From an uncultured Clostridia bacterium (GTDB lineage Bacteria; Bacillota; Clostridia; Christensenellales; Borkfalkiaceae): 64,000 nucleotides of DNA. The DNA is taken from NCBI GenBank assembly GCA_947627565.1, contig CANQWO010000005.1:4220-68219 (forward strand), given 5' to 3'. Below the pieces are notes generated by a model, which saw only the letters and a list, made by a program, of their open reading frames with translations, had not been told where the DNA came from and searched no databases. Below, in pieces: positions 1 through 62,953 of this stretch. Each line of letters opens with the position of its first letter. Position 1 is the first letter of the stretch. The position numbers and the translations under genes were made by a program.

Positions 1-3000
1 TCTCCGAGGGCGAGCTCGATGTAATCATATTCGCCGTATTCCGCCTCCATGGGCGCGATGCTCGTATTGAGCATGACCTTCGCGGTCACGGAATTGATGT
101 AGTAGGTGAGAGTGAAGGTCGCCGTATTGTGGTTATCCGCTTCGACCGTGATCTCCATCTCCCAAATGCCGACGCTGTGGATGGTCCAAAGATTGCCGAC
201 GTTCTCAACTTCCTGACGGACCTCCGTAGTGTTCGTAGGCTTGGAGTAGGTGATGGTTGCGCGGACGACGCCGTCAACCTCCACGAGGTAGACGAGTTTG
301 GTCTCGTCCGAACGCTCTGCGCTGAACGTGAGTTTTCCGTGCGATGCGCTTGCATAGTCACCCGCATAGACGAGGTAATCCGCCAAAATCTCCATCGCAT
401 ACCATCCGGTATCGGGCGACTTATCGCCGTCCTCCGGCCACATGCGGTAGACGCAGGACTTCGTCCAATTGCTGTCGGGCCGTTGCATGATGTCCGCGGG
501 CTTGATGGTGTAGGTACCCGCTGTCCCATTGTTGGGATCGCCCTTCTCGCTTTCCCAAGCGCCGTAGAACTTCACGTCGTAGCTCTTCATGAAGATCATC
601 GCGTCGTCGTAGTTGAGGCCCCATCTGCCGACAATTGCATGCTTGCCCGCCTGTGCATACAGCGTCTCCGGGTTTGCGGGTTCGGCCTTGCCGAGATAGA
701 AAGTGAGGTAGCCGAGATGTTCTTGCAGGATGGTGTAGTCCGCTTTGTCAAAGTCATACGTCCACTGTGCCTGCGCCGCATTGGTCGGCTGCTTGCTCTC
801 CCCGGAATAGATGGGCGCGGTGAGATTGATCTGCGCGCCGACATGCAGCCCATCGGTGCCGTAGACGGCCTCGGCGGTGCCGATCCGGATGGCGACGGAG
901 CGCTTGGTGATCACATAATCGCCGCCGTCGTGCTCGCCGGGCTCGTTCTTGCCGTCCTCGGTGACCCAATTGCGGAACGTCACGGCATAGTTGGAGTTGC
1001 CGCAACTGCCCTTGATGACGTCGGGATAGACCCCCGCCGCGGCATTCTGGTTGATGACGCCGTCGACGGTGAGCGTGATCTTGAGCGTTGCGCGCGATTC
1101 GCCGCCCGCATACCCCATGTTCTCTGCACCCGTCGTGCCGTAGACTTCCCAATTGTTCGGAAGCCCCGAGAGATCCTTGAGGATGGGCTCGCCGTAGACG
1201 GAGGTCTGGCTGCCGATGAGCACGATGATGGGACGGGGCAGGATGATGTAGTTGCCCGAGCCCTCGACGAAGGTAACGTCGTAATTGTCGCTCGAATAGA
1301 CCGCGGTGAGGCCGCCGACGTAGGTCATGGCGCTCCACCAGTGGCCGCTGAACGTGCCCTGATTCGTGAAGGCTGTGCCGTCGCGCGTGATCACGATGCC
1401 GAGATCCTTCTCGCTGTCGTCGCCGACAAACTGATCCTTCTGAGCGGTGAAGCCCCACGCCCCCTCGCTTCCCTCGAAACCTTCCTCTTTGAGGTCGTCG
1501 CCGTAGTAGCTCGAGTAATCGTGTAGGGTGACGCGCATCGCGCGCTTTGTGACGGTATGTTTCCCGCTCTGGGCGCCGTCGATGTGAAGGATATAGTTTT
1601 TATCGAAGCAGAACTTTCCGTCGCCGAGCGCCCAATCCGCAAGCCCTTCTGCGGTCGTGCCCGCTTCGGAATCGAGTTTGACGATGTAGCTGCCTGCGCC
1701 GGGGTACGGCGTCGTGCTCCGATCGAGTTTGGCGGTCCCATCGCCATTGAAGAGCGCGAGAAGCCCGAGGACAAACTTTCTGAGCTGTTCGGCCTTATCG
1801 CCGCTGCCAAAGTCATTTGTGAGTACGTTGTCGACATACGAGAAGCTGAACGCCTTCGCGCCCTCTTCTCCGTAGACGGCGGCGTCGTCGCCGTAGACGC
1901 TCGAACTCTCCGCAAGGGCGAGCTCCACCGTTCTGCGCTTGATCTCGAAGGCAACATACACACCATTCTCGCCGGCGTAGCGGATAGTCTGGCTGTTCTC
2001 ATCCTTGGTCTCGATCATGTAGTTTCCGCAGTCGCTGCCCAATAGTCCGTTTGTCCCCTCCCCGCTGAACACGTGCACCCAATAGTTGCCGACGTCGACG
2101 ACATCCGTAATGTCGAACACGGAACCGTTGTTGAAGTTCCCGCCCTCCGAGAAGTGTTGCTGTACGCTCGCGAAAAACACGTTGTCTCCATCGAAAAGGT
2201 TGGAGATATACACATAACTTGCGGCTTCGTTGACGAGAGAGTTCCCATTGTAGCGCAGATCTTGGATGCCATCTTTCGTGGCGACCTCGATGGCGAGCGG
2301 CGTCACGGTGAAGACCGTCCCCTCATACTTGGTGCTGTCGCCCTCGACGCCCTTGAATACGACGAAACTGCCGCCACTGAAGCCGCTCACCTTCATCGCG
2401 TCGATCTCAAGACCGTAACCGCCCGCCTTCAGAAGATGCGCGCCCGAGTAATCGCCCGAATCCGTGAGAATGCGAATACCGAATCCGTATTGTTGAAGCG
2501 CCTCTGCCTGCTTTGCGGCATCACCCGAAATTCCTTCCACGAGGATCTTTCCGTCGCGGATGAATTGGAGCACCGTTGCAAGGACGTTTTCGGGCGAATA
2601 CGCTTCCGTCTCGCCGTAGACGGCGTTGAAGTGCGCATCCTGCACCTTCAACGTGATCTGCGTCGCGTCTACCGTGACCTTCAGCTTGATCGCCAACCGC
2701 TCATGGTTCGGCGCGTCTACGGTAATCGAGATCACGTAGTCCCCCGCACCCGTGAGCGTGTATCCGATTGTAAGGCCGTTTCCGTTCGTGAGCGGCACAT
2801 AATCCCCTAAGCCCGCACAGGACGTGTAGGTAAACGTCGCATTCTCAGCGTTGAAGCCATCCGCCTTGTCGATAAATACGAAGTCCTCCGCCGTAACCGT
2901 GATGTCGTTCGTTTGGTTTGGCACATAGACGTACTTCTTCTTGCTTACGAAGGTCGTGCTGCCTTCCGACGCGGTACCGAGCGATTCGGCTGCGCCGATC

Positions 3001-6000
3001 GGAGCATTGGTGATCGTATACGTCCATTCCGCCTCCGCCGTATTTTGTGCAAACGAGAAGTCTGCGCTCACAAGTTTGACGGCGACGGCATAGGCGCCCG
3101 CGTTCTCGGGAATGCCGTCGAACGGCATCGTGTTGAAGCCGGCGTAGTTGGGCGTGAAGGTGACTTTGAGCGTATAGAGCAGCGTTTCATCGTCCGCCGT
3201 GACGTTATATGTCGCGGCAAGGCCGTTGATCGCAGCGTCGCCCTTCTTGCCCACAGGAAGGACGTTGATCCCCGCCTCGAAGTTGCGGAACACGACGTCG
3301 AGCACATGCTTTTTGGCGTCGTACACATTGCTCGTCGTATCTTTTGCGACGTCGTCAATCGTTACCGAAAGCGATCCCGTGATGAGCGCGGGCGTGATCT
3401 TGTAGGCCTCCTGCCCCCAAGTGCCGCCGACTTTATCGAAGGAATACGTCTTCGAATCCTCATGAGCGACAAATGCAAAGTTGTCGAGGTCGAGGTCGGT
3501 GAGCGTCACTTTGACAAGATACGGGATGGGCGTGCGGTTGCCGTTCGTCTTGACGTGCGTCGGCGCCGTATTAAGGCCATCATAGGTGATGACGGTGTCA
3601 TGCTCCGGCAGGACGGTGGCATTCACCGCATTGACAAAGCCGATCTTCGCGGGAAGCGGATCGCCCGTGTAGCTTGCGTCGGAAATGACGTCGAGATAGA
3701 TCTTCGCCTTCGTGATTTCGAAAGTGAAGGTCGCAGTGTAGTCGTCCACCCAGCCGTTAAGGTCCTCGGCGAATTTGAAGTTGGGCTGATTTCCCTCGAT
3801 GCCCGTCGAGTTTTGCAACTTAACGGTAACCGTGTACACGCCCGCGTTGTGCGGCAGCTTGTCGATCGCCGTTCCCCCAAGGGCATATGTAACGATGTAG
3901 TCGGAGACACTTTCGCTGGGGTTGTACGCGGGGAGAACGCCCGTATTGCTCACATTGACGAAGGTGAAGGAGCGGGACTGATCCTGCGCATTATAAGGAA
4001 GCGAAGTTTTATCGATTACCGCAGTCACATTTGCAGGGTCGATATAATACGACAGGTTGACAGTGCCCTGGAAGTTCTGCATGCCGGTGACGATGTTCGT
4101 GACATAGCCGACGTTGATATCCGACGTATTCGAGATGGAATAGTCGCCCTTCTTCAATTCGGCGTCGTACTGCTTGAGCTCCGTCTTCTCTGCGCCTTCG
4201 ACGAGCGCCATTCTGACGACGATGCCGTTGGTCTGCGGCTTGCCGTTGTAAACCTTGTGCTCGTTGTTCTCGATCCCGTAGACGTCATCATCCGTGATGG
4301 TGCGCTGCTGGATGGTGTAGGTGATCGACATCGTGTAGTTATTGTTGCCGAAACTGAAGTTTCCGCCCGGTATCTCCGTACCGAGAATGTAGAAAGTCAG
4401 CGTTACGGTGTAGGCGCCCGCATTCTTGTAGCCCTCGGATTTATCGATCGTCGTTCCGTTCCAGCCGTTGTAGGCCGCCGTCTGAACCTGATGGACGTTC
4501 GCGTCCTCCTTGTGATGGACGTTCGCGTCCTCCTTGAGCTCAACGGCCGCCGCTGTCGACCTGGTGTATATCTTATACTCGTGCGACTGTCTGTCATACG
4601 TCAGCGAGTTCCCTTCCTTGATTTCGCTACCATCTTTATCGCCGAGGTAAGCGGAGAGCACGACGGGCGTAACGCGGAAGTTTTTCGTAGCGCTACGCGT
4701 GCCGTCCTTCGTTTCAAAGACAAAGTTGTTGCTGAGCCCCATTGTAACGGTGTAGGCGCCCGCAAAATACGGCTTGCCGTTCTTGAGTCTCTCGTTGCCC
4801 GTCTTATTCGTGGCATCGATCGTGTATACGAGCGACGAGAAGTCGCTGGAGCCGAGTTCGGGAAGAACTGCGCCCTGTTTGTCTGCGAACGTGAAGCTGA
4901 AGCCCGCATCCTGCGCGTCATCGTTGAATATAACATCGCTGACCTCGCTGAGCTGAACGACGTTGGGCATGATATCGAAGACAAGCGTGATATAGACGTC
5001 GTTTTTCGGATCCGAACTCGTGCGGTAGCCGTCCTTATTCGGCGCAACCGTCGGATCGAGCTTGACGCTGTCGCCCTCGGTGGAGCCGCCCGCATACACA
5101 TTGACGATCGTGTAGTTTTTGTAGTGCTTCGCGTCGGGATAGTGATTCGTAAGCTCGTTGCTCAGACGGAAGGTCACAGCGTATCTGCCGACATCGACGA
5201 TCGTTGTGACGGGCGAGTCGGTCCATTTTTGTGTGCCGTCCACGAGCGTGAGGCTGTAGTACTCGATGGAGAACTGCGAGCCCTGCGGCACGGCGCCCTT
5301 CTCGGCGACGAGATAGATGGACCCGAAGCGGGCCGTCCAGTCGCCGCGATTATAGTAGAACTCGTTGACGAACTCGCCGTTACCCTTGAGGTCGCTCGCG
5401 GAGAAGAACACGTTGATTTTGGCAGGCGTCACCTCGAAGTCGACATAGACCTTGTAATCCGTTTTGCCGCGATACTGGACATTCCCCTTGTCATCCTTAT
5501 CTTTGAGCGATATGTTGGAACCGGTCGTGGAGCCCGCATAGATGTCTCGGAGGACATAGTTTTTGCCCGCCTCGTCCGTGAATTGGAAGAGCAAGGTGTA
5601 TTTGCCGACATCATAGATTCCGACATTCTCCGTTTCATCCCGATGGCCGTCATAATCATAGAAGAAAGTGACGGTGTACGCTTGGGACGCGGGAATGATG
5701 TTGGCGTCGTTTTTGAGTTCGATGGAGCCGAGCTTGATGGACTGGTCGGTACCGTCATAGACGAATTGGTTCGTGAACGCTTCGCCATTCAGGAAGGCAT
5801 TGAGGTAGAGGTCGATTTGCGCCGGCGTGATCGTGAAGGCGACCGAGAGCGAGCGCATGTCATCTCCGCTGTCAAGTTTCTCATAGCCCGTGGCGGAATC
5901 ATTTTTCAATTTGACGGGAGTGGAACCTTCAACGTCGGGAATGCCCGCATACACCGCAATGATGACGAAGTTCTTGCTGACCTCGCCGGTGAGCGAAATG

Positions 6001-9000
6001 ACGAGCTTATAGCTGCCGACGTTCTTCACAGACGTGACGATGGATTCCTTTTCCTCCACGACCGACTTGAAGGAGCGGCTGTACTCTCCGGACTGCGGAA
6101 TGATGCCGTTGCGCAGCTCGTTCTTGAACTGCACAGAGCCGAGCGTAGTCACCCACTCCGTCTTGTTGTAGTAAAAGCTGTTGATAAAGTTTGTGCCACT
6201 TCTGAAATCTTCGGACAGATAGACTTCGATCCGCGCCGGGGTGATCGTGAACATCACGGAGAAGTCTTCCATGCTGCCGCAGTAGCCCTTGCCGTCTTTG
6301 TCGACAGATTCAAGCGCGACAGTCTTATCACTGCCCGCATAGATCCCCGTGACATTGAAGTTATTTGCCGCGCTGAGTTTGAAGACGAGATAATATGTGC
6401 CGACGTTGGTGACATCGGAAAGCGCGCCGGCCTCATCCGCGCCCTTAAAGGTGACCGTATAGTCCGTTGCGGACGACGGCAAAATGTTGTCGTCATTCGT
6501 GATAATGACGTTGGAAAGAGCGGTTCTGCGGTTGGTTCTGTCGTAGACGAAGCTGTTGATGAAGCAGTCCGCGCCCTTTTCATTCTTGCCCTTGAACGGA
6601 TCGGGAAGGTGGAGTTGAATTTCCGCGGGCGTGACAACCACTTTGAACTTATAAGAGAACAGGAACGGCTCATTTTTATCGAACATGCCATTGATGTCTG
6701 TCGCTTTCGGGTCCTCCTTGTAGAACACGAAGTTGCTAAAGTGCTTCCCTCCGCTCACAAAATGGAACCAAACGAAATATTCACCCGCGTCGACCACGCC
6801 GTTAGCAAGAGGCGTTGCATTCTTCTTCGGCTTGTTGTTCTCCGAATCCCAATCGGTTGCATTGTAGTACTCAACAACATAGTCCGCATTGTTGGGCAAT
6901 GGCGCCGTATCCTCGTTCCCCTCCGTGGTACAGAGGTTTTTGAACGTATGCGTCAAGACCTGCGCCGTCTTGTTATAGCTGAAGGCAAGGGAGCCGTTGT
7001 CAAATGTCTTCGCATTCGGATTGAACGTTTCCGAATGCGAATTGCCGTCGCTTGCCGTAATGCTGACGATGGCGGGCAACACATAGAACGTTTCCACCCG
7101 CGTTCCCGTGAAGTTGTTGATACCCGTGAGCGTGGCAGTAGCAGGGCCCGCGTTGACGTTATCGGTATACGCGACCCGCAAGCCGATATTACTTTCATCC
7201 GTCGTTTTCAGCGTGATATTATTATACTTGCTAATATCATTGCTCTTTGCGATCAGTTTGATTGTGATCTCGGGCTGAATTTCCTTCCCCGTGTAGTGGT
7301 ATGCGGCAACATTGTAGTCCTGATGCTCTTTGTCTTGCGTAAACTCAACGGCGCTGAAATTCTCCGCCAAGCTAATGTCCAATGCGACGATCGTGTATTC
7401 GCGCGAAATGGTATAGTTACCATCCGCAAATTGGAAGTCGCCGGTTTCCGGAAGCGTAAGCGTAACGGTGTAGTTGCCGACGTTGGTGAAGCCTGCGTGA
7501 TCTTTCGCCCAGCCGCTGTAGCTGTAGGAGACCGCAACTTCGGTGCATGTCGGAGCTTCGCCGGTCGCAAGTGTGGGAAGAACGCCCTCATTCTGCGTGT
7601 TGGTGAGGTTGATACCGCCATTCTCTATGGTCGGCTTGTGCTCCTCAGCGTTATAATTAAAGGAGGACTCCGCCAGCGAGAATGTGATCTGCGCCGGGTT
7701 GATGAGGAATGGCGCCGTGATGACGGAGGAATCCTTCTCTTTGCCCTTTTCGCCGTAGCGTTGCATGAGGAGATTCTCCGCAGCCGTTATGTTCTTACGT
7801 GTGAAACTGGGCGCGGGAATCGGCTTTGTCCGGAACTCGAAATTCTTCGCGCCCGCTTCGATCAGTTCGATTTTTATAGAGTAGAGCTCGGAATGGTAAG
7901 GGACGCTATTGATGCAAGAATCTGTCTTGGAAATGATATTTTCATCTTTATAAGTGATTGTGTACTCGTTTGCTTCGACCTCCACACCCACGTTGTTTCC
8001 GTCCTTGAGCGTAGGCACCGCCTCGTTGTTGGACTGCGTGTTCGAAAAGGCGGGCGTCTGCGGCTGCGCCGTGCGGTTGTAGACGCTGTCCGCGAACCGA
8101 TCGAGCGTGATGGTCGCCTTATTGATGACAAAAGCACCGGGCGTGAAACTGTCACTGATTTCAGTCGATTCCGTCTCGCTGCCCTTCGTCGCCATGAAGT
8201 TGTAGGTATACGACTGCGCTGTCCCGCTCGTTGCCGAGCCAACGCAGCTATAACCCTCTTGCTTGCCGGTTGTGCCCGTCAAAACCGTCACGGCGAAGCA
8301 ATAGTTCCCACTTGTAAGCTCCACGGTCAACTTGTATGTATTCGCGTCCACGGGTGCGTTTGTAGCCTCTTCTCCATTTGCAGGCTCATAGCTCACCGTA
8401 TAGTTAGACGCTTCGGGTACAACATACTTCAAAGAGCTCGGAACGGTGTAGCTATTTGTCTCCAACCATTGATAGGTCGCGTTGGTGAAACTAAGCGCCG
8501 CGGCATGTTGGGCTCTATTGTAGATTGTGTCGCCTCCAGAATTGGTGACCGCAAACGTCACAACGGCGGGGATGACCGTATGCGTGCCCGTGGCCTGATG
8601 GACATATCCATCTTCGCCGGCGGCGCCGGGCGTAAACGGGCTCTCCGCACCAACCTTTTCTCCTACGAACTGAAAGTCGTTATTGCCGAGGGTGACCTGC
8701 ACGGAATACAGGCCTGCATCAACGGGCGCATTGTCATCGTAGTTGCCAAACGTACTCGAACTGTCTGTCGCTGTGCACTTTGCATACCGTACATAGAGCG
8801 CGCTCGCGTTAGGCACCGGCTCGTCACGCCATGTATCGACGCTTCCTGCCCGCGTGGGCTTAATGAACGCTGTGATCTCATCGCTGTATGTCTCGATGTT
8901 CTCGTATGTCACCGTGACGGCATGCGGATTCGCATCGTACTGCGCGGGGATGCCATCGTAGTCGATATAGATTCTTGCAGGGGTGATCTTGAAGATGAGT

Positions 9001-12000
9001 TGCAACGAGTTCTTGTAGTTGCCTGTGCCCTGCAGGGTGATGAGCGCGTCCGTGGTCGCGTTCGTGTTATTGGTATATTGGATCGAGTAGTCTTTTCCCG
9101 TCGTCAGTGTTAAACGACCGGTTGCGGAAGGATAGTAGAATGTCGTCTCCGTCGTCGTTGTGACGTTCTCGTCATCGACTTCAATCGTCGTCGTAATATT
9201 ACAAATAACACCATTTCGACCGCAGGCAAAGGATTTGACTTCCCTCGTTTCGGGTGTCGGCGCCGATCCGTGTTCCCTCGTCCAATCTGCAACCGTAGTG
9301 GTTACGACGGTTTTTGCCTTGGAGACGGGTTGATAGTTGATGGTCACATCAGGCTCGTATTTCCACGCAGTACCCGCGAACGGATAGGAATTCTCCGTCT
9401 TTCCGTCGCTTGTGATTGTGGTTCCGCTGCCCGACGTGTCGGCATAGTGGTGATAATCCTTCTCGCCGACCTTCGTAATATCGCCGTAGAGCTCGCTGAG
9501 ATCTTTCTGATCGACCGTCACATTAAACCAGCTCTCGGAGGTGATCTTGAAGTTCAAATCGGTGTTGAACTTCTGCACCTGCTTGCCGTCCGCCTGCTCA
9601 TAGGAAATGAGCCACGTCACGCCCTCGGACGGCGCAGTGGTGGTGCCGCCATCGTCGTCGTCTTTCGTATTGCCCTTTTTGTCATATTCAACGGTGCTGA
9701 GGTGATACGTGCCGACATCCGCCTTCCCTGTGTTGAAGGAATAGAGGCCGATTCCGAGCGAGATGTCGTGCTGCTTGAACTCCTCGCTCGAGTAGGTGAC
9801 CGAGACATTCCCGAGCGTATAGCGGCCCTTGTAGAAGGCGGCGTCGTAGTAGATATTGTTGCCGCCCCAAAGATCGCGGAGAGTGCGTGCCTTCGTCTCT
9901 GTTGCACCTGCGTAAGGCGCATACTCCTCCGTCGTATAACTCACAGCATGCTGATTGGTAATAAGTTCATTCGGTGTGGTGATGTTATCCTGTACGAGGA
10001 AGAAAATGGATTCGTACCATGCGTCGTCATCACCCTGACCAACACGCGGCGGGAGATATCTCGCCCGTTCGAAGCTACTGCCGTCGTAGGTATAGGAAAG
10101 GCTGCCCGATACGGTGATCTCGACGGGTTTGATCGTGTAGGTGCCGATGTAGACGCCCTTGAAGTTGGTGACGGGAACATACTTGGTTGCGCTTGCTTCC
10201 GCGCCCTCATTCCCCTCTATGGGCATGACGCCGCGGAAATAGACGAGGATCCAATATTCTCCCGCGTCTATGGGTTGGAACTTGCTCTTGAGGATAGGAT
10301 TGCCGTTTTCGTCCGTTCCCTCATATTTCGTCTCGGTTTCCCAAATTGCCCACTTGGAATTGTCCGGTTGTTCGATCCCGTCGGCCGTGACCTTGATGTC
10401 ATCGGGCGCGGAGCCGTCCGCATTCGCGGGATGATCCTTCTTGGAGAGATAGCGGACCTGCACGACTTTTTCATCGGGCATTTCGGGATAGTTGTAGAGA
10501 CCGCGGTTCGCGCCGCCGGCGGAATACCGCCCTGTGATGTTCGGCTCGGCGTTCGTGGCGTCGTAGGTGCGGTCGTCGAGGTTGATACTGCCCTGGCCCT
10601 CTTCGGGAACTTGCTCATTCGTCCAATGCTCGATCTCAACGGGCGAGATAAAGAAGTAGTAAGCAAATTCGTAAGCGACATCGCGGCCCTGTTCGTCTTT
10701 GGTTACCTTCTCGGCCATGCGCTGGAGGTCTTTCGAGGTAAAGATATAGTCGTTATAGGGCTTACCGCGCTCGGTGAACGGATTGTCCTTATCCGGCGCG
10801 TTTTCGTTCCACATCTTGGTGTTCAGCGAGACGTGCACAACATACTTGCCCGCGTCTTTCACGCCCCAACGTTCGGTGCCGTCGGAGTTATCCTTAATAC
10901 CGACCGCTTCATTCACGTCCAAGTTGTCGCTGTGCGCAACATAGTAATCAAACGTATAGTAATTGACGACGACGTTCTTATCGAGTTCGGGGTCGTTGCC
11001 CGCTTCATCGTTGTTGTTGAAGTAGAGGATCTGCTTGGTCGTGTAGACGCCGTCTTTGAAGGTGTAGCCGTAGACCTTCTTCTCATCGATCTCGCGCACT
11101 GTGGCATTGTCTTCGAGCCATACGGAGACGGAGACGCGCTGAATGGGCAAGTGCATCTCGCTCTGGAAGGCGATGTTGTTCTTCATGTAGTCGACGGAAG
11201 GCGCGGGGCCCTTTCCGACGACCTCGTGCGCGCCGCGCACTTCATAGAAGCCCGCGTGCAGGAAGTAGTTGGTCTTTTCGAGCTCTTTTTGCGTGCTGTC
11301 GCCGAGTTCGCGCCAGTAGTATTCGAGATCGAAATCGACTTTCCCGAAGTCGATCTCCACGTCCGCGCCGAAGAAGTCCTTATTGGCGTAAGTGAACTTC
11401 ATAACCGCGCCGGTGAACTTTTCAGCGCTTACATTGCCCGCGCTATCCTTGACCTTGCCTTTATCAGGGCCCTCTGTTGTTATAAATCTGCTATCCAGCA
11501 CGAAGTCATACGCCGTGCCGCGATAGTAGAGCGCGCCCGCAAGATATTCTTTAATTTTATCTTCGCCCGGAGTGGCGTTGTCTTTGAAGATATTCTCCTT
11601 GTCCTTCCAAGTCGTTTCGCCGTTCTTGACTTCGTATGCGGAAACGCCTACGCCGAGCTGGTTGATGTGGATGGTAAAGGTTGCGTTGGAATAAACGGTT
11701 GCGTTCTTGTCAATTACGCGGAAGGAATAGTCGCCCGCATAGACGAGCCTGCCGTCCGTCGCCTCATTCTCCTCGCCCTGCGCGGCGAGCAGATAGTGGA
11801 GGGTATAATCGACCCCTGCCGTATGAGAACTGCCATCATCTTCGGTCGCTTTCAGTTTGTCGATCGTCCAAGTAGCCTTTGTTTCACCCCCCGCTTTGGC
11901 GACGACCTTCGTGACTTCGAACATCTTGTGGTCGAACAGCATGGTCTTGCCCGTCCACTTGAAGGAATTGATCTCCGCGTCGGGGTTTGAGCCCTTGGGG

Positions 12001-14897
12001 TTATAGCTCGGCGACTGTACACTCCACTTGAAAGTCTTCTCCTCATCTCCCGACGCCTCGATCGTGATCGGCTCATCTTTTTTGCCATACAGATAGCCCG
12101 TGATCTCCCAGGTGAGGTCGGTGGGAGAGGTTGCGGTTCCGAGCTTCGCCTCGGTCTTCGTCCTATCGTTGTCCCAAACTACGCCCTTTCCGTCTGTGGT
12201 GTCGTCGGAAGTGAAATACAGCCAAGGGTTGACCTTTTCGTGCTCATTGTAGTTGCTCGTAAAGTTGCCGCTGCCCGCCATGGTCACGCCGATCTGCGCG
12301 CCGATCCCGTTCCGGAAGAGCGGCCCGTCGATAATGATCGTCGCCCCGTTTTCAAGATAGACGTTGTTTGCAGAACCGTCTTCGGCAATTTCAGTCACGC
12401 TACCGCCATACGTTTTCCTTCCATCAACGTTACTCTTTACGTGCTTCCAAACGACGCCGCCGAGACGGTTATATTCCTTGTTAAAAGCGTCACCCAGCGA
12501 CCACATCGGATAATCGGGGGGCGTATTTGTCTTGCCATCGGGTTCCATTGTCCCAGGTGCATTGTGAACGCCGCCATGCGGACATTTCTCTCCTGGTTTT
12601 TCTGATGTTTTCGTATATCCGGACGTCAAACCATAGCTGTCACTCAGGGTCACATCGTATGTAGATTGATAGTCACCATTGCCATCTGTATTCCAGCCGC
12701 AAGCGCGAACCGGCTCTCCCTTGACGGTTAAGCGAAGAATATACGGAGCTCTTGTATCAAGGCCGTTACCTTTATCGCCCGTACCGCCCGCATTTGACGT
12801 TGTGTATGTTCCGCAATCGCCGTAGTTTTGTGTAACGATGAGTGAACCCGCAAACTTGAACTTTGATTTTGCGTGTACATAAATCCCGCCGCCGTTCGTA
12901 CCCGCAACGTTCTGCGTGATATTGACATTTTCGAGCAGTCCCTCACCGTTTTCGCCAATATAGACACCGCCGCCTTGATTGCCCGCTTGGTTGTGCGTGA
13001 TATAGCCGCCGTGCAGGTTGACATAGGCGTTGTCGCAGAGGAAGACCCCACCGCCCGCGTCGGCGGCACGGTTGTAGGAGATGACCCCGTCGTAGAAGGT
13101 GAACACCGAGCGCGATTTACTCGCAACATAGGTGGCGCCGCCACGTATTGTAGCATAGTTATTGATGAAATAGCCGTTATAGACGAGCACCGCCGCGCGC
13201 GATAACGCATAAAAGGCGCCGCCGTACTGCGCCTGATTGTCCTTAAACGTGCCGCTGTGGACGATGAGCTCGCCGCTCGGGTTGACGTGCACGGCGCCGC
13301 CCTTGCCCTCGTTGGAATTATAGCCGAAAGTGGCGCCGTTTTCGACGCCCAAGTCGTTATCCATGTAGACGTAATATCTTTCGTTGGTACAGCCGCCCGA
13401 GATCGTGCCCTTGTGGTTGGTCTCATAGTGCGTGACCGTTTTATCTACCGTTTCCGCAAGGTCTACATTTTTGTTGTCCTTATTGAGTTTGGTGATACGG
13501 CCGTCGGAGGCGCGCTCGTAAGCGGAGCTATCCACGATCTCGAGGCGGGCCTTGGGCTGCACCGTCATGACGCTCCCGTAATAGCAGAGCTCGTTGCCGT
13601 AGAGGTTGCCGCCGTCGCGGGCGCCGAGCAGCGTCCCGTCGTAGATTTGGACGAGCTTGTTGAGCTCATCCATCGCGCCGAGGTTGTATTCATACTTGCT
13701 CTTTAAGATGCTGCCGTGATAGGAGATCTCTTCGTTGTTCTCCTCGGTGAGACCGCGCGAAATGGTGTGGCCGTTGAGGTCGAGCACGATATAGGCGCCC
13801 GTCGGCACGTTGATGCGCCCGTAGGAGAAGGGCGAGGAGATATTGAAGCCCACTTGGCCTTCCGCGTTGGCCGTTTGATCGGCCATGGTGGCAAGATCAT
13901 AGGAGGCATAGTAGCCCTTATCGTTGGTGTAGCCGTCGCCGTTTCCGGTGAATTTGCTCAATTGCCGATCGTTTGCTGTTCCGTTTTCGCCGGGCACTTG
14001 GAATACCTGCTCGCTCTCGCTGTAATCTTCGCGAATATCTTTGCGGGAAGTATCTTCTTCTGCCCAGTTGTTCGTTCCCAACCAGTAGCTCTCAAAAGTT
14101 TTATAGTCCTTCGCCCAGTTAAAGGTGGTGATCCAACGCTTATCATGCGTGATTACTTGATCTTTCGGAGCCGTTTTAACATTGCCGAGGGCAAAGGCAA
14201 TGTTTGTCTCAATGTCCTTGGCATACCAGTCGCAATTGAGCTTGACGGTGATATACTGCCCCTTGTAGCTCGTTTGCTTGCTACCATTGACATTTTCTAC
14301 GGTATATGAGTCGGCAAAATAGTTGCCGCGCGCAATTCCGCCACCGGGGATCTTTTGCACCTCCCCGCTGATAGGATCTTTGGATTGATCCACTGTGGTC
14401 TTATAGGGAGAATCCTCGCTTTGGCCGAGGGCATATTCCACCGCCTCCGTCCAGACTTTAGCCGCCTCCTCGGGCGAATTGATGATGAAAACTTTATCCG
14501 TGGTGCCCTCTTTGGAAGAGGACGCCTGTACAAGTTTGTGGGGGCGCGCCGAGTTCTGTTTGATCTCCTGTCCATTCTCTTCCACGGTAACATTATCGAG
14601 GCCGAGCTGGGCATACCAACCGGCATAACCGCCCGTGGTATCGTTTTTTGTCACGGGGCTGGAACCGAAACCGTAGTACCATTCACTATGTTTCCCGATA
14701 TTGGAGTTGATCAGGGGATTTGCAGTATCATCTGCATAAGACGTGATCGCCGACGTGAGCGGACAAATCAAAAATAAGCCGACCGCAAGACAGACGGCAA
14801 ATGCCGGGGTGAACAGCCCCAGGAGCCACCGGCGCACCCGCGCAAAGGCCTTCGATTTTCCGTGATGTAACCGAATATATCCTTCCATATATTCCAT
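1..14897 (-). CDS. Giant cell-surface repeat protein (adhesin-like). The 5' end is in the window and the gene runs past position 1, with at least 4,965 codons visible.
   Basis: The gene is missing from the ORF track because there is no stop codon in the window. The minus-strand frame with codon first positions = 2 mod 3 is open from ATG 14897 to position 1 (alternative ATG 14888; GGAGG at 14900-14904). None of the roughly 30 listed minus-strand ORFs in 1-14897 lies in that frame. Hand translation is protein-like at both ends: N-terminus MEYMEGYIRLHHGKSKAFARVRRWLLGLFTPAFAVCLAVGLFLICPLTSAITSYA (signal/anchor), and window edge ...IAPMEAEYGEYDYIELALGE. GGAVHV/GGAFYA/GGATYV/GGGVFL/GGGVYI/GGGIYV parallel beta-helix (PbH1/Pmp-like) repeats lie at about 12830-13315. 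More than 25 Ig-like repeats follow (F.ITPA.I ... NAG.Y.V). MBG (YGX-type)-like units (VYGE, YYGD, VYGT) lie at about 850-2650. Confidence 0.9.
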   Translation of the reverse strand, partial: MEYMEGYIRLHHGKSKAFARVRRWLLGLFTPAFAVCLAVGLFLICPLTSAITSYADDTANPLINSNIGKHSEWYYGFGSSPVTKNDTTGGYAGWYAQLGLDNVTVEENGQEIKQNSARPHKLVQASSSKEGTTDKVFIINSPEEAAKVWTEAVEYALGQSEDSPYKTTVDQSKDPISGEVQKIPGGGIARGNYFADSYTVENVNGSKQTSYKGQYITVKLNCDWYAKDIETNIAFALGNVKTAPKDQVITHDKRWITTFNWAKDYKTFESYWLGTNNWAEEDTSRKDIREDYSESEQVFQVPGENGTANDRQLSKFTGNGDGYTNDKGYYASYDLATMADQTANAEGQVGFNISSPFSYGRINVPTGAYIVLDLNGHTISRGLTEENNEEISYHGSILKSKYEYNLGAMDELNKLVQIYDGTLLGARDGGNLYGNELCYYGSVMTVQPKARLEIVDSSAYERASDGRITKLNKDNKNVDLAETVDKTVTHYETNHKGTISGGCTNERYYVYMDNDLGVENGATFGYNSNEGKGGAVHVNPSGELIVHSGTFKDNQAQYGGAFYALSRAAVLVYNGYFINNYATIRGGATYVASKSRSVFTFYDGVISYNRAADAGGGVFLCDNAYVNLHGGYITHNQAGNQGGGVYIGENGEGLLENVNITQNVAGTNGGGIYVHAKSKFKFAGSLIVTQNYGDCGTYTTSNAGGTGDKGNGLDTRAPYILRLTVKGEPVRACGWNTDGNGDYQSTYDVTLSDSYGLTSGYTKTSEKPGEKCPHGGVHNAPGTMEPDGKTNTPPDYPMWSLGDAFNKEYNRLGGVVWKHVKSNVDGRKTYGGSVTEIAEDGSANNVYLENGATIIIDGPLFRNGIGAQIGVTMAGSGNFTSNYNEHEKVNPWLYFTSDDTTDGKGVVWDNDRTKTEAKLGTATSPTDLTWEITGYLYGKKDEPITIEASGDEEKTFKWSVQSPSYNPKGSNPDAEINSFKWTGKTMLFDHKMFEVTKVVAKAGGETKATWTIDKLKATEDDGSSHTAGVDYTLHYLLAAQGEENEATDGRLVYAGDYSFRVIDKNATVYSNATFTIHINQLGVGVSAYEVKNGETTWKDKENIFKDNATPGEDKIKEYLAGALYYRGTAYDFVLDSRFITTEGPDKGKVKDSAGNVSAEKFTGAVMKFTYANKDFFGADVEIDFGKVDFDLEYYWRELGDSTQKELEKTNYFLHAGFYEVRGAHEVVGKGPAPSVDYMKNNIAFQSEMHLPIQRVSVSVWLEDNATVREIDEKKVYGYTFKDGVYTTKQILYFNNNDEAGNDPELDKNVVVNYYTFDYYVAHSDNLDVNEAVGIKDNSDGTERWGVKDAGKYVVHVSLNTKMWNENAPDKDNPFTERGKPYNDYIFTSKDLQRMAEKVTKDEQGRDVAYEFAYYFFISPVEIEHWTNEQVPEEGQGSINLDDRTYDATNAEPNITGRYSAGGANRGLYNYPEMPDEKVVQVRYLSKKDHPANADGSAPDDIKVTADGIEQPDNSKWAIWETETKYEGTDENGNPILKSKFQPIDAGEYWILVYFRGVMPIEGNEGAEASATKYVPVTNFKGVYIGTYTIKPVEITVSGSLSYTYDGSSFERARYLPPRVGQGDDDAWYESIFFLVQDNITTPNELITNQHAVSYTTEEYAPYAGATETKARTLRDLWGGNNIYYDAAFYKGRYTLGNVSVTYSSEEFKQHDISLGIGLYSFNTGKADVGTYHLSTVEYDKKGNTKDDDDGGTTTAPSEGVTWLISYEQADGKQVQKFNTDLNFKITSESWFNVTVDQKDLSELYGDITKVGEKDYHHYADTSGSGTTITSDGKTENSYPFAGTAWKYEPDVTINYQPVSKAKTVVTTTVADWTREHGSAPTPETREVKSFACGRNGVICNITTTIEVDDENVTTTTETTFYYPSATGRLTLTTGKDYSIQYTNNTNATTDALITLQGTGNYKNSLQLIFKITPARIYIDYDGIPAQYDANPHAVTVTYENIETYSDEITAFIKPTRAGSVDTWRDEPVPNASALYVRYAKCTATDSSSTFGNYDDNAPVDAGLYSVQVTLGNNDFQFVGEKVGAESPFTPGAAGEDGYVHQATGTHTVIPAVVTFAVTNSGGDTIYNRAQHAAALSFTNATYQWLETNSYTVPSSLKYVVPEASNYTVSYEPANGEEATNAPVDANTYKLTVELTSGNYCFAVTVLTGTTGKQEGYSCVGSATSGTAQSYTYNFMATKGSETESTEISDSFTPGAFVINKATITLDRFADSVYNRTAQPQTPAFSNTQSNNEAVPTLKDGNNVGVEVEANEYTITYKDENIISKTDSCINSVPYHSELYSIKIELIEAGAKNFEFRTKPIPAPSFTRKNITAAENLLMQRYGEKGKEKDSSVITAPFLINPAQITFSLAESSFNYNAEEHKPTIENGGINLTNTQNEGVLPTLATGEAPTCTEVAVSYSYSGWAKDHAGFTNVGNYTVTLTLPETGDFQFADGNYTISREYTIVALDISLAENFSAVEFTQDKEHQDYNVAAYHYTGKEIQPEITIKLIAKSNDISKYNNITLKTTDESNIGLRVAYTDNVNAGPATATLTGINNFTGTRVETFYVLPAIVSITASDGNSHSETFNPNAKTFDNGSLAFSYNKTAQVLTHTFKNLCTTEGNEDTAPLPNNADYVVEYYNATDWDSENNKPKKNATPLANGVVDAGEYFVWFHFVSGGKHFSNFVFYKEDPKATDINGMFDKNEPFLFSYKFKVVVTPAEIQLHLPDPFKGKNEKGADCFINSFVYDRTNRRTALSNVIITNDDNILPSSATDYTVTFKGADEAGALSDVTNVGTYYLVFKLSAANNFNVTGIYAGSDKTVALESVDKDGKGYCGSMEDFSVMFTITPARIEVYLSEDFRSGTNFINSFYYNKTEWVTTLGSVQFKNELRNGIIPQSGEYSRSFKSVVEEKESIVTSVKNVGSYKLVISLTGEVSKNFVIIAVYAGIPDVEGSTPVKLKNDSATGYEKLDSGDDMRSLSVAFTITPAQIDLYLNAFLNGEAFTNQFVYDGTDQSIKLGSIELKNDANIIPASQAYTVTFFYDYDGHRDETENVGIYDVGKYTLLFQFTDEAGKNYVLRDIYAGSTTGSNISLKDKDDKGNVQYRGKTDYKVYVDFEVTPAKINVFFSASDLKGNGEFVNEFYYNRGDWTARFGSIYLVAEKGAVPQGSQFSIEYYSLTLVDGTQKWTDSPVTTIVDVGRYAVTFRLSNELTNHYPDAKHYKNYTIVNVYAGGSTEGDSVKLDPTVAPNKDGYRTSSDPKNDVYITLVFDIMPNVVQLSEVSDVIFNDDAQDAGFSFTFADKQGAVLPELGSSDFSSLVYTIDATNKTGNERLKNGKPYFAGAYTVTMGLSNNFVFETKDGTRSATKNFRVTPVVLSAYLGDKDGSEIKEGNSLTYDRQSHEYKIYTRSTAAAVELKEDANVHHKEDANVHQVQTAAYNGWNGTTIDKSEGYKNAGAYTVTLTFYILGTEIPGGNFSFGNNNYTMSITYTIQQRTITDDDVYGIENNEHKVYNGKPQTNGIVVRMALVEGAEKTELKQYDAELKKGDYSISNTSDINVGYVTNIVTGMQNFQGTVNLSYYIDPANVTAVIDKTSLPYNAQDQSRSFTFVNVSNTGVLPAYNPSESVSDYIVTYALGGTAIDKLPHNAGVYTVTVKLQNSTGIEGNQPNFKFAEDLNGWVDDYTATFTFEITKAKIYLDVISDASYTGDPLPAKIGFVNAVNATVLPEHDTVITYDGLNTAPTHVKTNGNRTPIPYLVKVTLTDLDLDNFAFVAHEDSKTYSFDKVGGTWGQEAYKITPALITGSLSVTIDDVAKDTTSNVYDAKKHVLDVVFRNFEAGINVLPVGKKGDAAINGLAATYNVTADDETLLYTLKVTFTPNYAGFNTMPFDGIPENAGAYAVAVKLVSADFSFAQNTAEAEWTYTITNAPIGAAESLGTASEGSTTFVSKKKYVYVPNQTNDITVTAEDFVFIDKADGFNAENATFTYTSCAGLGDYVPLTNGNGLTIGYTLTGAGDYVISITVDAPNHERLAIKLKVTVDATQITLKVQDAHFNAVYGETEAYSPENVLATVLQFIRDGKILVEGISGDAAKQAEALQQYGFGIRILTDSGDYSGAHLLKAGGYGLEIDAMKVSGFSGGSFVVFKGVEGDSTKYEGTVFTVTPLAIEVATKDGIQDLRYNGNSLVNEAASYVYISNLFDGDNVFFASVQQHFSEGGNFNNGSVFDITDVVDVGNYWVHVFSGEGTNGLLGSDCGNYMIETKDENSQTIRYAGENGVYVAFEIKRRTVELALAESSSVYGDDAAVYGEEGAKAFSFSYVDNVLTNDFGSGDKAEQLRKFVLGLLALFNGDGTAKLDRSTTPYPGAGSYIVKLDSEAGTTAEGLADWALGDGKFCFDKNYILHIDGAQSGKHTVTKRAMRVTLHDYSSYYGDDLKEEGFEGSEGAWGFTAQKDQFVGDDSEKDLGIVITRDGTAFTNQGTFSGHWWSAMTYVGGLTAVYSSDNYDVTFVEGSGNYIILPRPIIVLIGSQTSVYGEPILKDLSGLPNNWEVYGTTGAENMGYAGGESRATLKITLTVDGVINQNAAAGVYPDVIKGSCGNSNYAVTFRNWVTEDGKNEPGEHDGGDYVITKRSVAIRIGTAEAVYGTDGLHVGAQINLTAPIYSGESKQPTNAAQAQWTYDFDKADYTILQEHLGYLTFYLGKAEPANPETLYAQAGKHAIVGRWGLNYDDAMIFMKSYDVKFYGAWESEKGDPNNGTAGTYTIKPADIMQRPDSNWTKSCVYRMWPEDGDKSPDTGWYAMEILADYLVYAGDYASASHGKLTFSAERSDETKLVYLVEVDGVVRATITYSKPTNTTEVRQEVENVGNLWTIHSVGIWEMEITVEADNHNTATFTLTYYINSVTAKVMLNTSIAPMEAEYGEYDYIELALG
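4491..4538 (-). repeat. In-frame 24-nt tandem duplication inside the giant gene
   Basis: There are two adjacent copies, atggacgttcgcgtcctccttgtg and atggacgttcgcgtcctccttgag. They duplicate the peptide KEDANVH in the minus-strand protein. Confidence 0.9.
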
Positions 14898-15139
14898 GTC
14901 CTCCGTTCCGATCCTATTTATCGGGTTCGATCGGTTCGATCGCTTTGGATCATTTGATTTCTTTCATCCAATCGGATAAGAGTTTTCCTTTCCCGTGCGG
15001 AACGCACGGGAAAGGGGGCATGCCCCCTTTTGGCCGAGTGTCGGTTGTGAAACCCCACCCCTCTTTGCGGAAAGACGATCTTTCGCTATCCTCCGCAGGG
15101 CGGAGCACACAGACTCCGACATTAGATAATATTATATCA
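14898..15139 (-). promoter_or_regulatory. Long structured 5' leader of the giant gene (candidate cis-regulatory RNA or attenuator, class unassigned)
   Basis: About 230 nt separate the predicted promoter from the start codon. The minus-strand RNA can form a closing helix (GUCGG..UGUG with CACA.CCGAC) around two hairpins, CUCCGC-CCU-GCGGAG and GCGAAAGA-UCG-UCUUUCCGC. A G-rich segment (GAGGGGUGGGG) follows, then two tandem GC hairpins: GGGGGCAUGCCCCC+UUU and CCCGUGCG-UUC-CGCACGGG. Confidence 0.4.
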
Positions 15140-15145
15140 GATATT

Positions 15146-15174
15146 ATTTTATTTCGCTTGAAGCAATTTGTCAA
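15146..15174 (-). promoter_or_regulatory. Sigma-70-type promoter of the giant gene
   Basis: On the minus strand: TTGACA (15169-15174), 17 nt, TAAAAT (15146-15151). An extended -10 (TGATATAAT) lies just downstream. The -35 sits inside the palindrome AATTTGTC-N10-GACAAATT (15165-15190). Confidence 0.55.
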
Positions 15175-15316: not shown

Positions 15317-15356
15317 AAAAAAATCCGACGGCATACATTTCTGCCGTCGGATTTTT
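15317..15356 (-). terminator. Rho-independent terminator of the GH51 gene
   Basis: Stem AAATCCGACGGCA...TGCCGTCGGATTT flanked by A/T runs, immediately after the stop at 15374. Confidence 0.7.
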
Positions 15357-22570: not shown

Positions 22571-23509
22571 TTAAAATACTTCTTTTCTCGTCGGCATCGC
22601 GGGGATGGCCCCCTCGCGCGAGACGACGCAAGACGCCGCACGGTTGGCACGGTACAGCATCTCCTTCAATTCTTCTTTGCCGAGCCCTTCGATCCCGCGG
22701 CCGAGCAACTGGTATAGGATCGTGCCGATAAAAGAGTCGCCCGCGCCCGTCGTATCCACGACGTGCACATTCGTATCGGTGGGCTGCCATGCCTCCGTTT
22801 CCCGCGTATAGGCGGAGGCGCCGCCCGCACCCTTCGTGACAAAGACCAGCTTGACTTCCCCCCGAAACAGTTGCAAAACCGCCTCCTTCTCGCAGGAAAT
22901 GCCCGTGATGTCATAGAGCTCCTCATCGCTCACTTTCACGATGTCGGCGAGGGGCAGAAATTCGCGCACCGTGGAGAGCAGCTCCTCGGCGCTCTTCCAG
23001 AGCGAATAGCGGAGATTGGGATCGAAGCTCACGATCGCCCCCGCCCTTCTCGCCCGCTCGATGGCGGCGATGTGCGCCCCTTTCACGGGCGCGTCGCAGA
23101 GATCTACGCTCCCGAAATGCAGAATGTCGCCCTCCCGGAACGGAATGGCCCGCACCTCGCTCGCATCCAGCAGCATATCCGCGGACGGATTGCGGTAGAA
23201 GGAAAAACTTCTCTCGCCTTTTTCGTCGCGCGCGACGAAAGCGAGCGCGGTGTTGGCGGCGTCGGTGCGGAATACAAAATCCGTTCCGACGTTTTCGCGC
23301 ATCAGCGTCTCCGCCAAAAAGTTCCCGAACGCATCGTTGCCGAGTTTGGTGACAACGGCGGCACGTTTTCCGAGTTTTGCCACACAGACGGCGACATTTG
23401 CGGGTGCGCCGCCCGCGTTTTTGCGGAAGGTCGTCGCCGTTTCGAGGACGCCCGCCTCCTGTGCGGTGAAGTCGATGAGCATTTCGCCGATGGCATAGAG
23501 TGTGTTCAT
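22571..23509 (-). CDS. Fructokinase (PfkB/ribokinase family)
   Basis: Motifs GGAPANVA and VDTTGAGDSF. RBS AAGAGG, 7 nt, ATG. Confidence 0.85.
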   Translation of the reverse strand: MNTLYAIGEMLIDFTAQEAGVLETATTFRKNAGGAPANVAVCVAKLGKRAAVVTKLGNDAFGNFLAETLMRENVGTDFVFRTDAANTALAFVARDEKGERSFSFYRNPSADMLLDASEVRAIPFREGDILHFGSVDLCDAPVKGAHIAAIERARRAGAIVSFDPNLRYSLWKSAEELLSTVREFLPLADIVKVSDEELYDITGISCEKEAVLQLFRGEVKLVFVTKGAGGASAYTRETEAWQPTDTNVHVVDTTGAGDSFIGTILYQLLGRGIEGLGKEELKEMLYRANRAASCVVSREGAIPAMPTRKEVF

Positions 23510-23581
23510 AAAATTACCTCTTTTTACGCCTATGCCTCCGCGATAAATGACCGCGGAGGCGTGCGTGGGTGTTTGTGCTAT

Positions 23582-25600: not shown

Positions 25601-25615
25601 GATTTCACTCCTTTT

Positions 25616-27382: not shown

Positions 27383-27502
27383 AATTTTCACTCCTTGATT
27401 AGATTTCGTTTTTGTTGTCCCCCCGGGACGCAGGGTAAAACGGCTTATTGGGGGAGGAGCCGCCTACCCTGTCTGTCCCCTTTGAAGGAAAGTGCGGACC
27501 GA

Positions 27503-48891: not shown

Positions 48892-49130
48892 TTTTTCCTC
48901 CTTATACAAACTGAAAAACTCAGATTTTTTACGAATTGAAACTTGCGCGGATCACGCGGAATGTGATCGATGTTTGGAACGATGTTACAAAAATTTTCCC
49001 CCCCGACCCCATTCCCGCAAAGCGGAAACGGGGTGGGATGGAGGAAAAAATACTTGCGCGATCTCCGTTCGCCCTACCCCGCCGAAGCGGGGCGGACGAA
49101 ATGAAGATCAAAGGAGTAAATTATGAAACG

Positions 49131-62893: not shown

Positions 62894-62924
62894 AACAACT
62901 TCCTCCTTATCGGTAACTGCGTCT

Positions 62925-62953
62925 ATTATAATCCCCAAATGAAAATTTGTCAA
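62925..62953 (-). promoter_or_regulatory. Consensus promoter of paralogue A
   Basis: On the minus strand: TTGACA (62948-62953), 17 nt, TATAAT (62925-62930). The box AAAAAAATTTTTTTCATAA lies upstream at 62958-62976. Confidence 0.65.

Follow-up and report, generated by a model that had tools for sequence, protein, structure and literature searches.

Giant adhesin-like proteins are common in gut Firmicutes, and in the so-called periscope proteins highly identical DNA repeats recombine within species. The fibrillar adhesins of Gram-positive bacteria have been defined as a class by Monzon, Lafita and Bateman (PMC8286594, PMC9210967); their adhesive domains are N-terminal and their anchors C-terminal (PMC8286594), the MBG domain is listed among those found in the stalk (PMC9210967), and nearly half of the detected fibrillar-adhesin-like proteins carry no known anchor (PMC8286594). 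We report here a giant gene on the minus strand of a 64,000-nucleotide (nt) stretch of DNA, hereafter the window, from an uncultured Clostridia bacterium (assembly GCA_947627565.1, contig CANQWO010000005.1, positions 4,220 to 68,219 of the forward strand). It covers almost one quarter of the window and runs off the first base (Table 1). Its product, a giant adhesin-like surface protein of a gut Firmicute, is of a familiar overall kind; the family itself is undescribed. The layout of the protein and its relatives matches that of the Gram-positive fibrillar adhesins, which supports reading it as a fibrillar adhesin.

Translation of the reverse complement from ATG 14897 down to base 3 gives 4,965 codons without a single stop, and an in-frame stop stands 22 codons 5′ of that ATG. 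The preliminary description of this DNA had proposed one giant gene, open from ATG 14897 and cut by the window edge, and had singled out in-frame stops on the minus strand between 1 and 14897 as what to look for; none occurs there, and the codon statistics of the frame are native. Indeed, its GC contents at the three codon positions (GC1/GC2/GC3 of 0.52/0.41/0.72) match those of ten neighbouring genes, and a codon model trained on these ten genes gives it +0.54 bits per codon, the shifted frames of the same strand scoring −0.87 and −0.93. This is a real coding gene, not a chance frame. Its product is acidic (isoelectric point 4.7), rich in Thr, Gly, Asn and Tyr and poor in Cys, a composition typical of extracellular stalk proteins. 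Collapse or chimerism of the repeats during assembly had also been named as something that could undo the proposal. The gene contains no direct DNA repeat longer than 34 nt, its sole tandem repeat of note being a perfect 24-nt duplication left by a recent slippage event, and independently assembled relatives are co-linear with it at 44-67% identity across ~1,900 amino acids (aa).

The recognition of domains in such long proteins requires some caution. Pfam and NCBIfam scans of proteins longer than ~3,600 aa gave zero families, even though pieces of the same proteins matched above the cutoffs: the giant protein and its relatives P0006 (3,638 aa) and P0008 (4,997 aa) came out empty at whole length, and a 1,509-aa piece of a third relative, P0005, gave MBG_2 at 60 bits. 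The zero is a long-query artefact and the giant protein was therefore scanned in pieces; whole-length scans of giant proteins with hidden Markov models (HMMs) are not trustworthy as negatives. Furthermore, BLASTP of the protein against itself returned the identity match alone, and fragment phmmer was used instead.

At the N-terminus, hydrophobicity reaches a Kyte-Doolittle maximum of 2.37 at aa 26-33, and both the hydrophobic core 'TPAFAVCLAVGLFL' and a YA-A site are conserved in the relatives, with cleavage predicted after SYA. The signal or anchor read there in the preliminary description is thus well founded, and the distinct domain of about 300 aa placed behind it is likewise recognisable as a head conserved across the family, with ~50 invariant columns across 13 species and the motifs NxNIGxH..W, VVFxI..AAxVW, GQYITVxLxxDWxAK and TTFN. 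No relative was found for the head in Pfam, nor for its family profile among PDB sequences. The next region opens with the invariant motif FSYGRINVPxGxYIVLDLNGHxIxR and has the repeats of a Pmp-like beta-helix, as had been claimed: Pfam Chlam_PMP (PF02415, 24.4 bits for a cutoff of 20.6) and NCBIfam POMP_repeat (TIGR01376, 19.1 bits for a cutoff of 15) both match at aa ~657-675, and five FxxN...GGG[IV][YF] rungs can be followed. PbH1, Big and DUF6273, which had been suggested for the Pfam search, have no match in the giant protein. An exhaustive HMMER search with aa 40-1000 collected 7,147 proteins, mostly matched through the beta-helix. The AlphaFold2 (AF2) model of head and helix, built from 6 sequences, has a mean predicted local distance difference test (pLDDT) score of 43; the strands of the rungs reach 70-80 at aa ~530-690, the head is left without a resolved fold, and Foldseek with this model returned only beta-helix proteins, all of them non-significant. 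An insertion inside the helix region is missing from the five more distant relatives in alignment A2. Across the family, ~60 positions of head and beta-helix together are invariant.

Beyond the helix, a stretch of divergent beta-rich modules with no match in Pfam leads to a central region which is the best-conserved part among distant relatives. Ten relatives, with heads at ~30% identity, match this region at 43-60%, an eleventh, L014, reaching just 22%, and the alignment of the region (A6) has a mean column identity of 51%. The motifs LSYTYDG, WYESIFFLVQD, DLWGG and GIGLYSFxT are invariant in it, and no relative was detected either in Pfam or, with the family profile, among PDB sequences. Head and central region together amount to ~600 aa of conserved sequence without known relative, which would constitute new domain families.

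The stalk array that follows is made of MBG-like modules, each recognised by an iterated internal profile with E-values of 1e-15 to 1e-33 (alignment A1; consensus FTITPA..YN/YDG..Y.V.Y..aGxYtVtv..NFxF), with a few other immunoglobulin (Ig)-like modules interspersed, e.g., at aa 2505-2602 and 3531-3615. Within it, the YAG motifs of the longer units stand at window positions 6344, 5954, 5543 and 5099. A block of such repeats of ~135 aa had been noticed in the preliminary description; the block does exist, and its place is to be shifted from about 5400-6700 to that of the four units in Table 1. These units number 4 here, 9 in P0005 and 2 in P0008. They are mutually 29-36% identical as protein and have no similarity at the DNA level, so that the variation in copy number is an old one, between species. 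Toward the window edge, five long YGX-like modules (aa 4079-4200, 4320-4451, 4450-4551, 4554-4665 and 4664-4800) are accompanied by an MBG-like module (aa 4194-4303) and an unclassified one (aa 4800-4940), and a further YGX module starts at aa 4940 and is cut by the edge (aa 4940-4965).

How these modules should be named deserves some comment. For single modules and for pieces alike, the top Pfam family is repeatedly MBG or MBG_2, always below threshold: for MBG (PF17883) the best score in the window is 22.6 bits (aa 3531-3618) versus a gathering cutoff of 23.3 (600-aa pieces give 19.9 and 16 bits, and the consensus of the repeats 14.3), and for MBG_2 (PF18676, the YGX type) it is 17.6 bits (aa 4450-4556) versus a cutoff of 25. 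More indirect support comes from a 1,427-aa secreted protein encoded elsewhere in the window, whose validated MBG_2 domain aligns with a YGX-like module at 30% identity and with the YGX module profile in hhalign at 56% probability (E = 1e-4), and from the C-terminal piece of P0005, where MBG_2 scores 60.2 bits, above the cutoff. The iterated YGX-module profile did not reach the MBG_2 domain of the 1,427-aa protein. In turn, the MBG-like profile finds a weak match (E = 0.055) in PDB 4ng0, the adhesin repeat of LAR_0958. The profiles of the two module types show no detectable relationship to each other by hhalign. One repeat unit modelled with AF2, with the internal copies as alignment, is mostly beta at a pLDDT of 65, and Foldseek found nothing for this model. 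Altogether, the sequence comparisons make them MBG-like and YGX-like modules rather than members of Pfam MBG and MBG_2; the MBG (YGX) assignment of the preliminary description holds as to the nearest families and falls short of the gathering scores. Its "dozens" of Ig-like repeats, in turn, correspond to a true repeat array and overstate it, with ~21 modules delimited by profiles and ~1,000 aa of unclassified beta-rich sequence.

The end of the protein can be approached through its relatives. The exhaustive search yielded four full-length, co-linear ones, P0005 (6,509 aa), P0012 (5,080 aa), P0008 (4,997 aa) and P0006 (3,638 aa), none of which carries a name or a Pfam record in its source. Identity to P0005 varies by block, being 33% over aa 4-691, 27% over aa 843-1317, 36% over aa 1583-2433 and 51% over aa 2701-4961, the last of these against P0005 residues 3377-5648. 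Residue 4961 of the giant protein corresponds to residue 5648 of P0005, of which 861 residues remain; counted in the same way, 521 remain in P0008 and 1,469 in P0012. Given these remainders of 521-1,469 residues, the full-length protein would probably have ~5,500-6,400 aa, and the window would hold the 5′ ~85% of the gene. The final part has one layout in all four relatives: YGX modules give way to a conserved last module of ~110 aa, which is followed by a hydrophobic helix (DITLYVxIFASQF...LIF) and then by the tail RRRKxK. Their C-termini are matched by NCBIfam LPXTG_anchor at model positions 8-34, i.e., in its transmembrane (TM) and basic part, and contain neither LPXTG nor any other known C-terminal sorting motif. 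By extrapolation from these orthologues, the giant protein would be anchored by a C-terminal TM helix with a basic tail, without LPXTG. The missing 3′ end was sought with the last 600 aa among genome contigs and metagenome contigs, with no match. Word-indexed searches gave no relative for the last 865 aa; for the N-terminal 950 aa, they retrieved a single true relative (28% identity) along with one weak match carrying Pfam Beta_helix and NosD domains. The protein of the neighbouring GH51 gene is likewise absent from the exact-match collection.

In three of the four full-length relatives, the giant gene is followed on the same strand, after a gap of 24-134 nt, by a homologous downstream gene. 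The protein that it encodes has an N-terminal TM helix, 0-4 Big_3 repeats and a C-terminal domain of ~170 aa (FEGGxLRYDRSFTARxIQ...) that is 64% identical where the giants are ~30% and has no match in Pfam. No such partner gene comes after the giant gene of P0006. In the window, tblastn detects no copy, and one would be expected to lie past base 1.

As for the distribution of the family, a scan with the alignment of head and helix through one genome per species (185,579 species) located 16 loci, all titled "MAG: uncultured Clostridia bacterium isolate Lapin-...". We take this label, from the French word for rabbit, to designate a rabbit host. Over roughly the first 1,900 residues, the four closest loci reach identities of 67%, 63%, 50% and 44%, and the others stay at ~30%; in none of the 16 does a stop interrupt the giant frame within the available DNA. 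P0001 (ENA) and P0006 and P0012 (Logan runs) are three relatives of other origin. Two scans of 241 million JGI metagenome records, one with the last 600 aa and one with the family alignment, retrieved no relative. This is an unnamed family of surface proteins of 3,600-6,500 aa in a clade of uncultured caecal Clostridia; it is undescribed and apparently lineage-restricted, found so far almost only in uncultured rabbit-gut Clostridia.

Taken together, these data lead us to regard the giant protein as probably a membrane-anchored fibrillar adhesin of a monoderm Clostridia bacterium with a stalk of variable length. The monoderm condition is suggested by solute-binding proteins with a LAACG lipobox in the window, by the title "Clostridia" of the relatives and by Spo0A beside one of them. 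The protein would be exported by Sec and would stay in the cytoplasmic membrane by its C-terminal helix, the basic tail facing the cytoplasm. With 25-30 tandem beta-sandwich modules, and a typical Ig-like domain measuring ~4 nm, the stalk would extend for on the order of 100 nm, crossing the wall and presenting the beta-helix and the head distally for ligand binding. Host mucus, plant fibre and other microbes would be plausible targets in the caecum of a herbivore. Between species, ~135-aa YAG units would have been gained and lost, adjusting the length of the stalk. If the protein does mediate attachment to fibre, mucus or partner microbes, it would be a candidate factor behind niche and host specificity in the hindgut of herbivores.

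Several points weigh against this interpretation. No known adhesive domain is detected in the giant protein (Pfam, PDB) and no binding partner emerges from the analysis; the head and the central region lack Pfam or PDB relatives, and both surface location and binding are predicted. Since the structure predictions are weak (pLDDT 65 and 43) and the fold searches non-significant, the Ig-like fold attributed to the modules rests on sequence patterns and sub-threshold matches. Moreover, the C-terminal anchor lies outside the window, and the orthologues used to describe it are only 30-51% identical. Finally, conservation peaks in the central region and not at the tip, which would be unusual if binding were the sole selected function.

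This last observation favours, instead of a ligand-specific adhesin, a structural or spacing fibre of the envelope, which, working with the downstream membrane protein, would form a coat or a capsule-like layer or serve cell aggregation. Such a role would also agree with the homologous downstream gene of three of the four full-length relatives and with the restriction of the family to one lineage, as is expected of an envelope component. Nevertheless, wall-binding domains such as SLH and CWB2 are missing from the Pfam and NCBIfam results, no partner gene follows the giant gene of P0006, and the ~60 invariant positions of head and beta-helix argue for a specific distal function; we regard an envelope fibre as unlikely. 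A different role is suggested by the genomic setting, rich in functions of sugar utilisation (GH51, two GH32, PfkB, GH36, NanE, GH26, GH31, GH20 and ABC permeases): the protein would carry, in the beta-helix and perhaps also the head, a polysaccharide lyase or glycosidase that is tethered on a stalk and attacks plant cell-wall or mucin glycans. The window is indeed packed with glycoside hydrolases and sugar ABC transporters, the parallel beta-helix is the fold of pectate lyases and of tailspike depolymerases, which appear among the non-significant fold matches, and the Beta_helix and NosD domains of the weak match mentioned above point in the same direction. However, no carbohydrate-active enzyme or lyase family appears at any threshold in the Pfam and NCBIfam scans, and the repeats are of the PMP (FxxN-GGA) type typical of adhesin passengers. 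Furthermore, the sugar setting is not conserved beside the relatives, where GH51 is upstream in none of the 16 and P0005 is located among housekeeping genes, and in the window itself the giant gene has its own promoter-like site, with a terminator-like hairpin between GH51 and it. A tethered enzyme appears improbable to us.

An artefact (a frame open by chance, a pseudogene in decay or repeats wrongly joined in assembly) could be suspected from a truncated gene whose source is probably a metagenome assembly and whose genome is missing from the exact-match collection. The 4,965 stop-free codons, the native codon usage, the absence of long DNA repeats, the co-linearity of independent assemblies and the open frames of all 16 relatives speak so consistently to the contrary that this reading is effectively refuted. 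A polymorphic toxin or contact-dependent effector was considered as well and rejected, the protein having no toxin domain and the orthologues ending in a membrane anchor. A more speculative view, to which we give little credence, would see in the locus a lineage-specific two-gene surface apparatus of rabbit-gut Clostridia, in which the giant protein would contribute two new domains, namely the head and the central region with its WYESIFFLVQD motif, the latter more conserved than the tip. Its C-terminal signal (a conserved SFL...DI motif, the helix and the RRRK tail) and the downstream TM/Big_3 protein would then form a new anchoring or processing system that sorts or holds the giant protein, in place of simple tethering to the membrane.

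Returning to the window, the start of the giant gene leaves a choice of two codons. GGAGG lies 2 nt from ATG 14897 and 11 nt from ATG 14888, and the annotated start of the orthologue P0005 (MEGYI...) corresponds to the latter, three codons inside the first ATG. Translation may begin at 14897 or at 14888, a difference of three codons that is irrelevant to the conclusions. The promoter-like site stands ~250 nt 5′ of the start codon, an Rfam scan of this leader of ~250 nt gave no credible match, and the terminator-like hairpin, which comes directly after the stop of the upstream GH51 gene, would separate the two transcription units.

The gene had been described as invisible in the track of open reading frames (ORFs), which appeared as three long plus-strand ORFs with many short minus-strand ones, for want of a stop inside the window. 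The same pattern is seen again in the ORF listing, which indeed omits ORFs that run off the source. The plus-strand ORFs opposite the giant gene are shadow ORFs, with codon scores of about −0.2, GC1 of 0.72-0.81 and an abundance of Arg, Val and Leu. All the long ones share the codon-aligned antisense frame, in which stops occur only opposite sense TTA, CTA or TCA codons; that of 2,066 aa is bounded by sense TTA codons at 9113 and 2810. These ORFs are long because the giant gene uses just 15 such codons out of 4,965 (~20 would be expected from the usage of its neighbours), and the masking is a by-product of codon usage. A further shadow ORF of 1,536 aa (22763-27373, plus strand; GC1 0.79, codon score −0.06) runs antisense to two real minus-strand genes at 23582-25600 and 25616-27391, from which it follows that the effect is general in this genome. 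Standard tracks miss the giant gene: ORF lists omit it for want of a stop inside the window, HMM scans at whole length come back empty, and a shadow ORF as long as 2,066 aa could be annotated by mistake where it lies.

The 1,427-aa secreted protein had been presented as being of the same type as the giant one. What they have in common is the generic class of MBG/YGX modules and not the architecture: the smaller protein has no match to the profiles of head, beta-helix or central region and no C-terminal hydrophobic anchor. It also shows a weak match to DUF6273 and lies directly upstream of two ABC permease genes. Also encoded in the window is a predicted lipoprotein of 1,568 aa (49131-53837, minus strand), with a LAACG lipobox followed by a PGPGPDPGPGPDPGP linker and no Pfam family at E <= 0.001, which adjoins GH31, GH20 and ABC transporter genes. 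In addition, four predicted lipoproteins of 590-670 aa are encoded on the minus strand (23582-25600, 25616-27391, 46924-48909 and 60947-62953). Their N-termini carry lipobox-like sequences, and Pfam gives little or no signal for them; three of the four adjoin ABC permease genes and are possibly unusually large or divergent solute-binding proteins.

Table 1. Coordinates of the giant gene, its parts and other features of the locus (window positions, except for the last row; aa, residues of the giant protein).
Feature	Position	Strand	Basis or remarks
Giant surface protein, partial coding sequence, complete at its 5′ end and running off window base 1 at its 3′ end	3..14897	-	
Start region: GGAGG (14904-14900), ATG 14897, second ATG 14888	14888..14904	-	Sequence; orthologue start
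Signal peptide or signal anchor (aa 1-55)	14733..14897	-	Basic n-region, hydrophobic core aa 25-47, SYA followed by DD
Conserved head (aa 56-345), ~290 aa	13863..14732	-	Family alignments A2, A5
Right-handed parallel beta-helix, PMP-type repeats (aa 346-930)	12108..13862	-	Pfam/NCBIfam matches, rungs, AF2
Insertion of ~150 aa inside the beta-helix region (aa 700-850)	12348..12800	-	Alignment A2, columns ~1060-1220
Divergent beta-rich modules, unclassified (aa 931-1575)	10173..12107	-	Homologous in relatives, ~26-27% identity
Central conserved region (aa 1576-1870)	9288..10172	-	Family comparison, alignment A6
Stalk array, 15 MBG-like modules of ~100 aa (aa 1967-4303)	1989..8999	-	Iterated internal profile
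Four tandem units of ~135 aa with (V/I)YAG extension (aa 2750-3300)	4998..6650	-	Internal profile, motif positions
In-frame 24-nt tandem duplication (KEDANVHH x2), in a stalk module	4489..4536	-	Repeat scan and protein sequence
C-terminal part inside the window (aa 4079-4965)	3..2663	-	Internal profiles
Promoter-like site TTGACA-17-TAAAAT	15146..15174	-	Consensus scan, 11/12 matches; putative function
Terminator-like hairpin (ccgacggca...tgccgtcgg + T run)	15317..15350	-	Read by eye; not listed by the automatic scan
Shadow ORF, 465 aa	129-1526	+	Codon-aligned antisense frame, like the 2,066-aa ORF
Shadow ORF, 2,066 aa, not a gene	2913..9113	+	GC1 0.72, codon score −0.23, Arg 14.6%
Shadow ORF, 906 aa	9270-11990	+	Codon-aligned antisense frame, like the 2,066-aa ORF
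Secreted protein, 1,427 aa, signal peptide, several MBG-like modules	29660-33943	-	Pfam; MBG_2 58.7 bits
Downstream partner genes of relatives, outside the window	L001:29554-31932, L019:15246-17003, L020:15988-17055	same as giant gene	

The comparison with described systems helps to place the family. With the fibrillar adhesins of Gram-positive bacteria, the giant protein shares its great length, the export signal, the tandem Ig-like stalk modules and a stalk whose length varies between orthologues. Unlike them, it has no recognised adhesive domain, its tip being a PMP-type beta-helix with a head without Pfam or PDB relatives; its predicted anchor is a simple TM helix that ends in a basic tail, in place of LPXTG, SLH or choline-binding domains; and it has an additional, strongly conserved central region and is mostly invisible to Pfam.

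The modules recall those of MBG and MBG_2 proteins such as LAR_0958 of Lactobacillus reuteri (PDB 4ng0), by their size of ~100 aa and by a similar pattern (TITPA...YDG/YN...Y.V.Y...aGxYtvtv...NY/NF). They depart from them in that the YGX-like modules measure 105-135 aa versus 72 aa for the Pfam model of MBG_2, that no module in the window attains a gathering score, and that the two types show no mutual relationship detectable by hhalign. In turn, the chlamydial Pmp proteins and the passengers of autotransporters such as Ag43 are approached by the FxxN and GGA(I/L/V) repeats, which pass the cutoffs, and by the predicted parallel beta-helix; in contrast to these, the host belongs to the monoderm Clostridia, the orthologues end in a single TM helix without a beta-barrel, and the helix would occupy the distal N-terminus of a 5,000-aa stalk instead of making up the whole passenger. 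Lastly, the family has in common with the periscope proteins, surface proteins of variable length (PMC9704523), a number of tandem stalk units that differs between orthologues (4, 9 and 2), and differs from them in that its units are 29-36% identical, have no similarity at the DNA level and vary between species.

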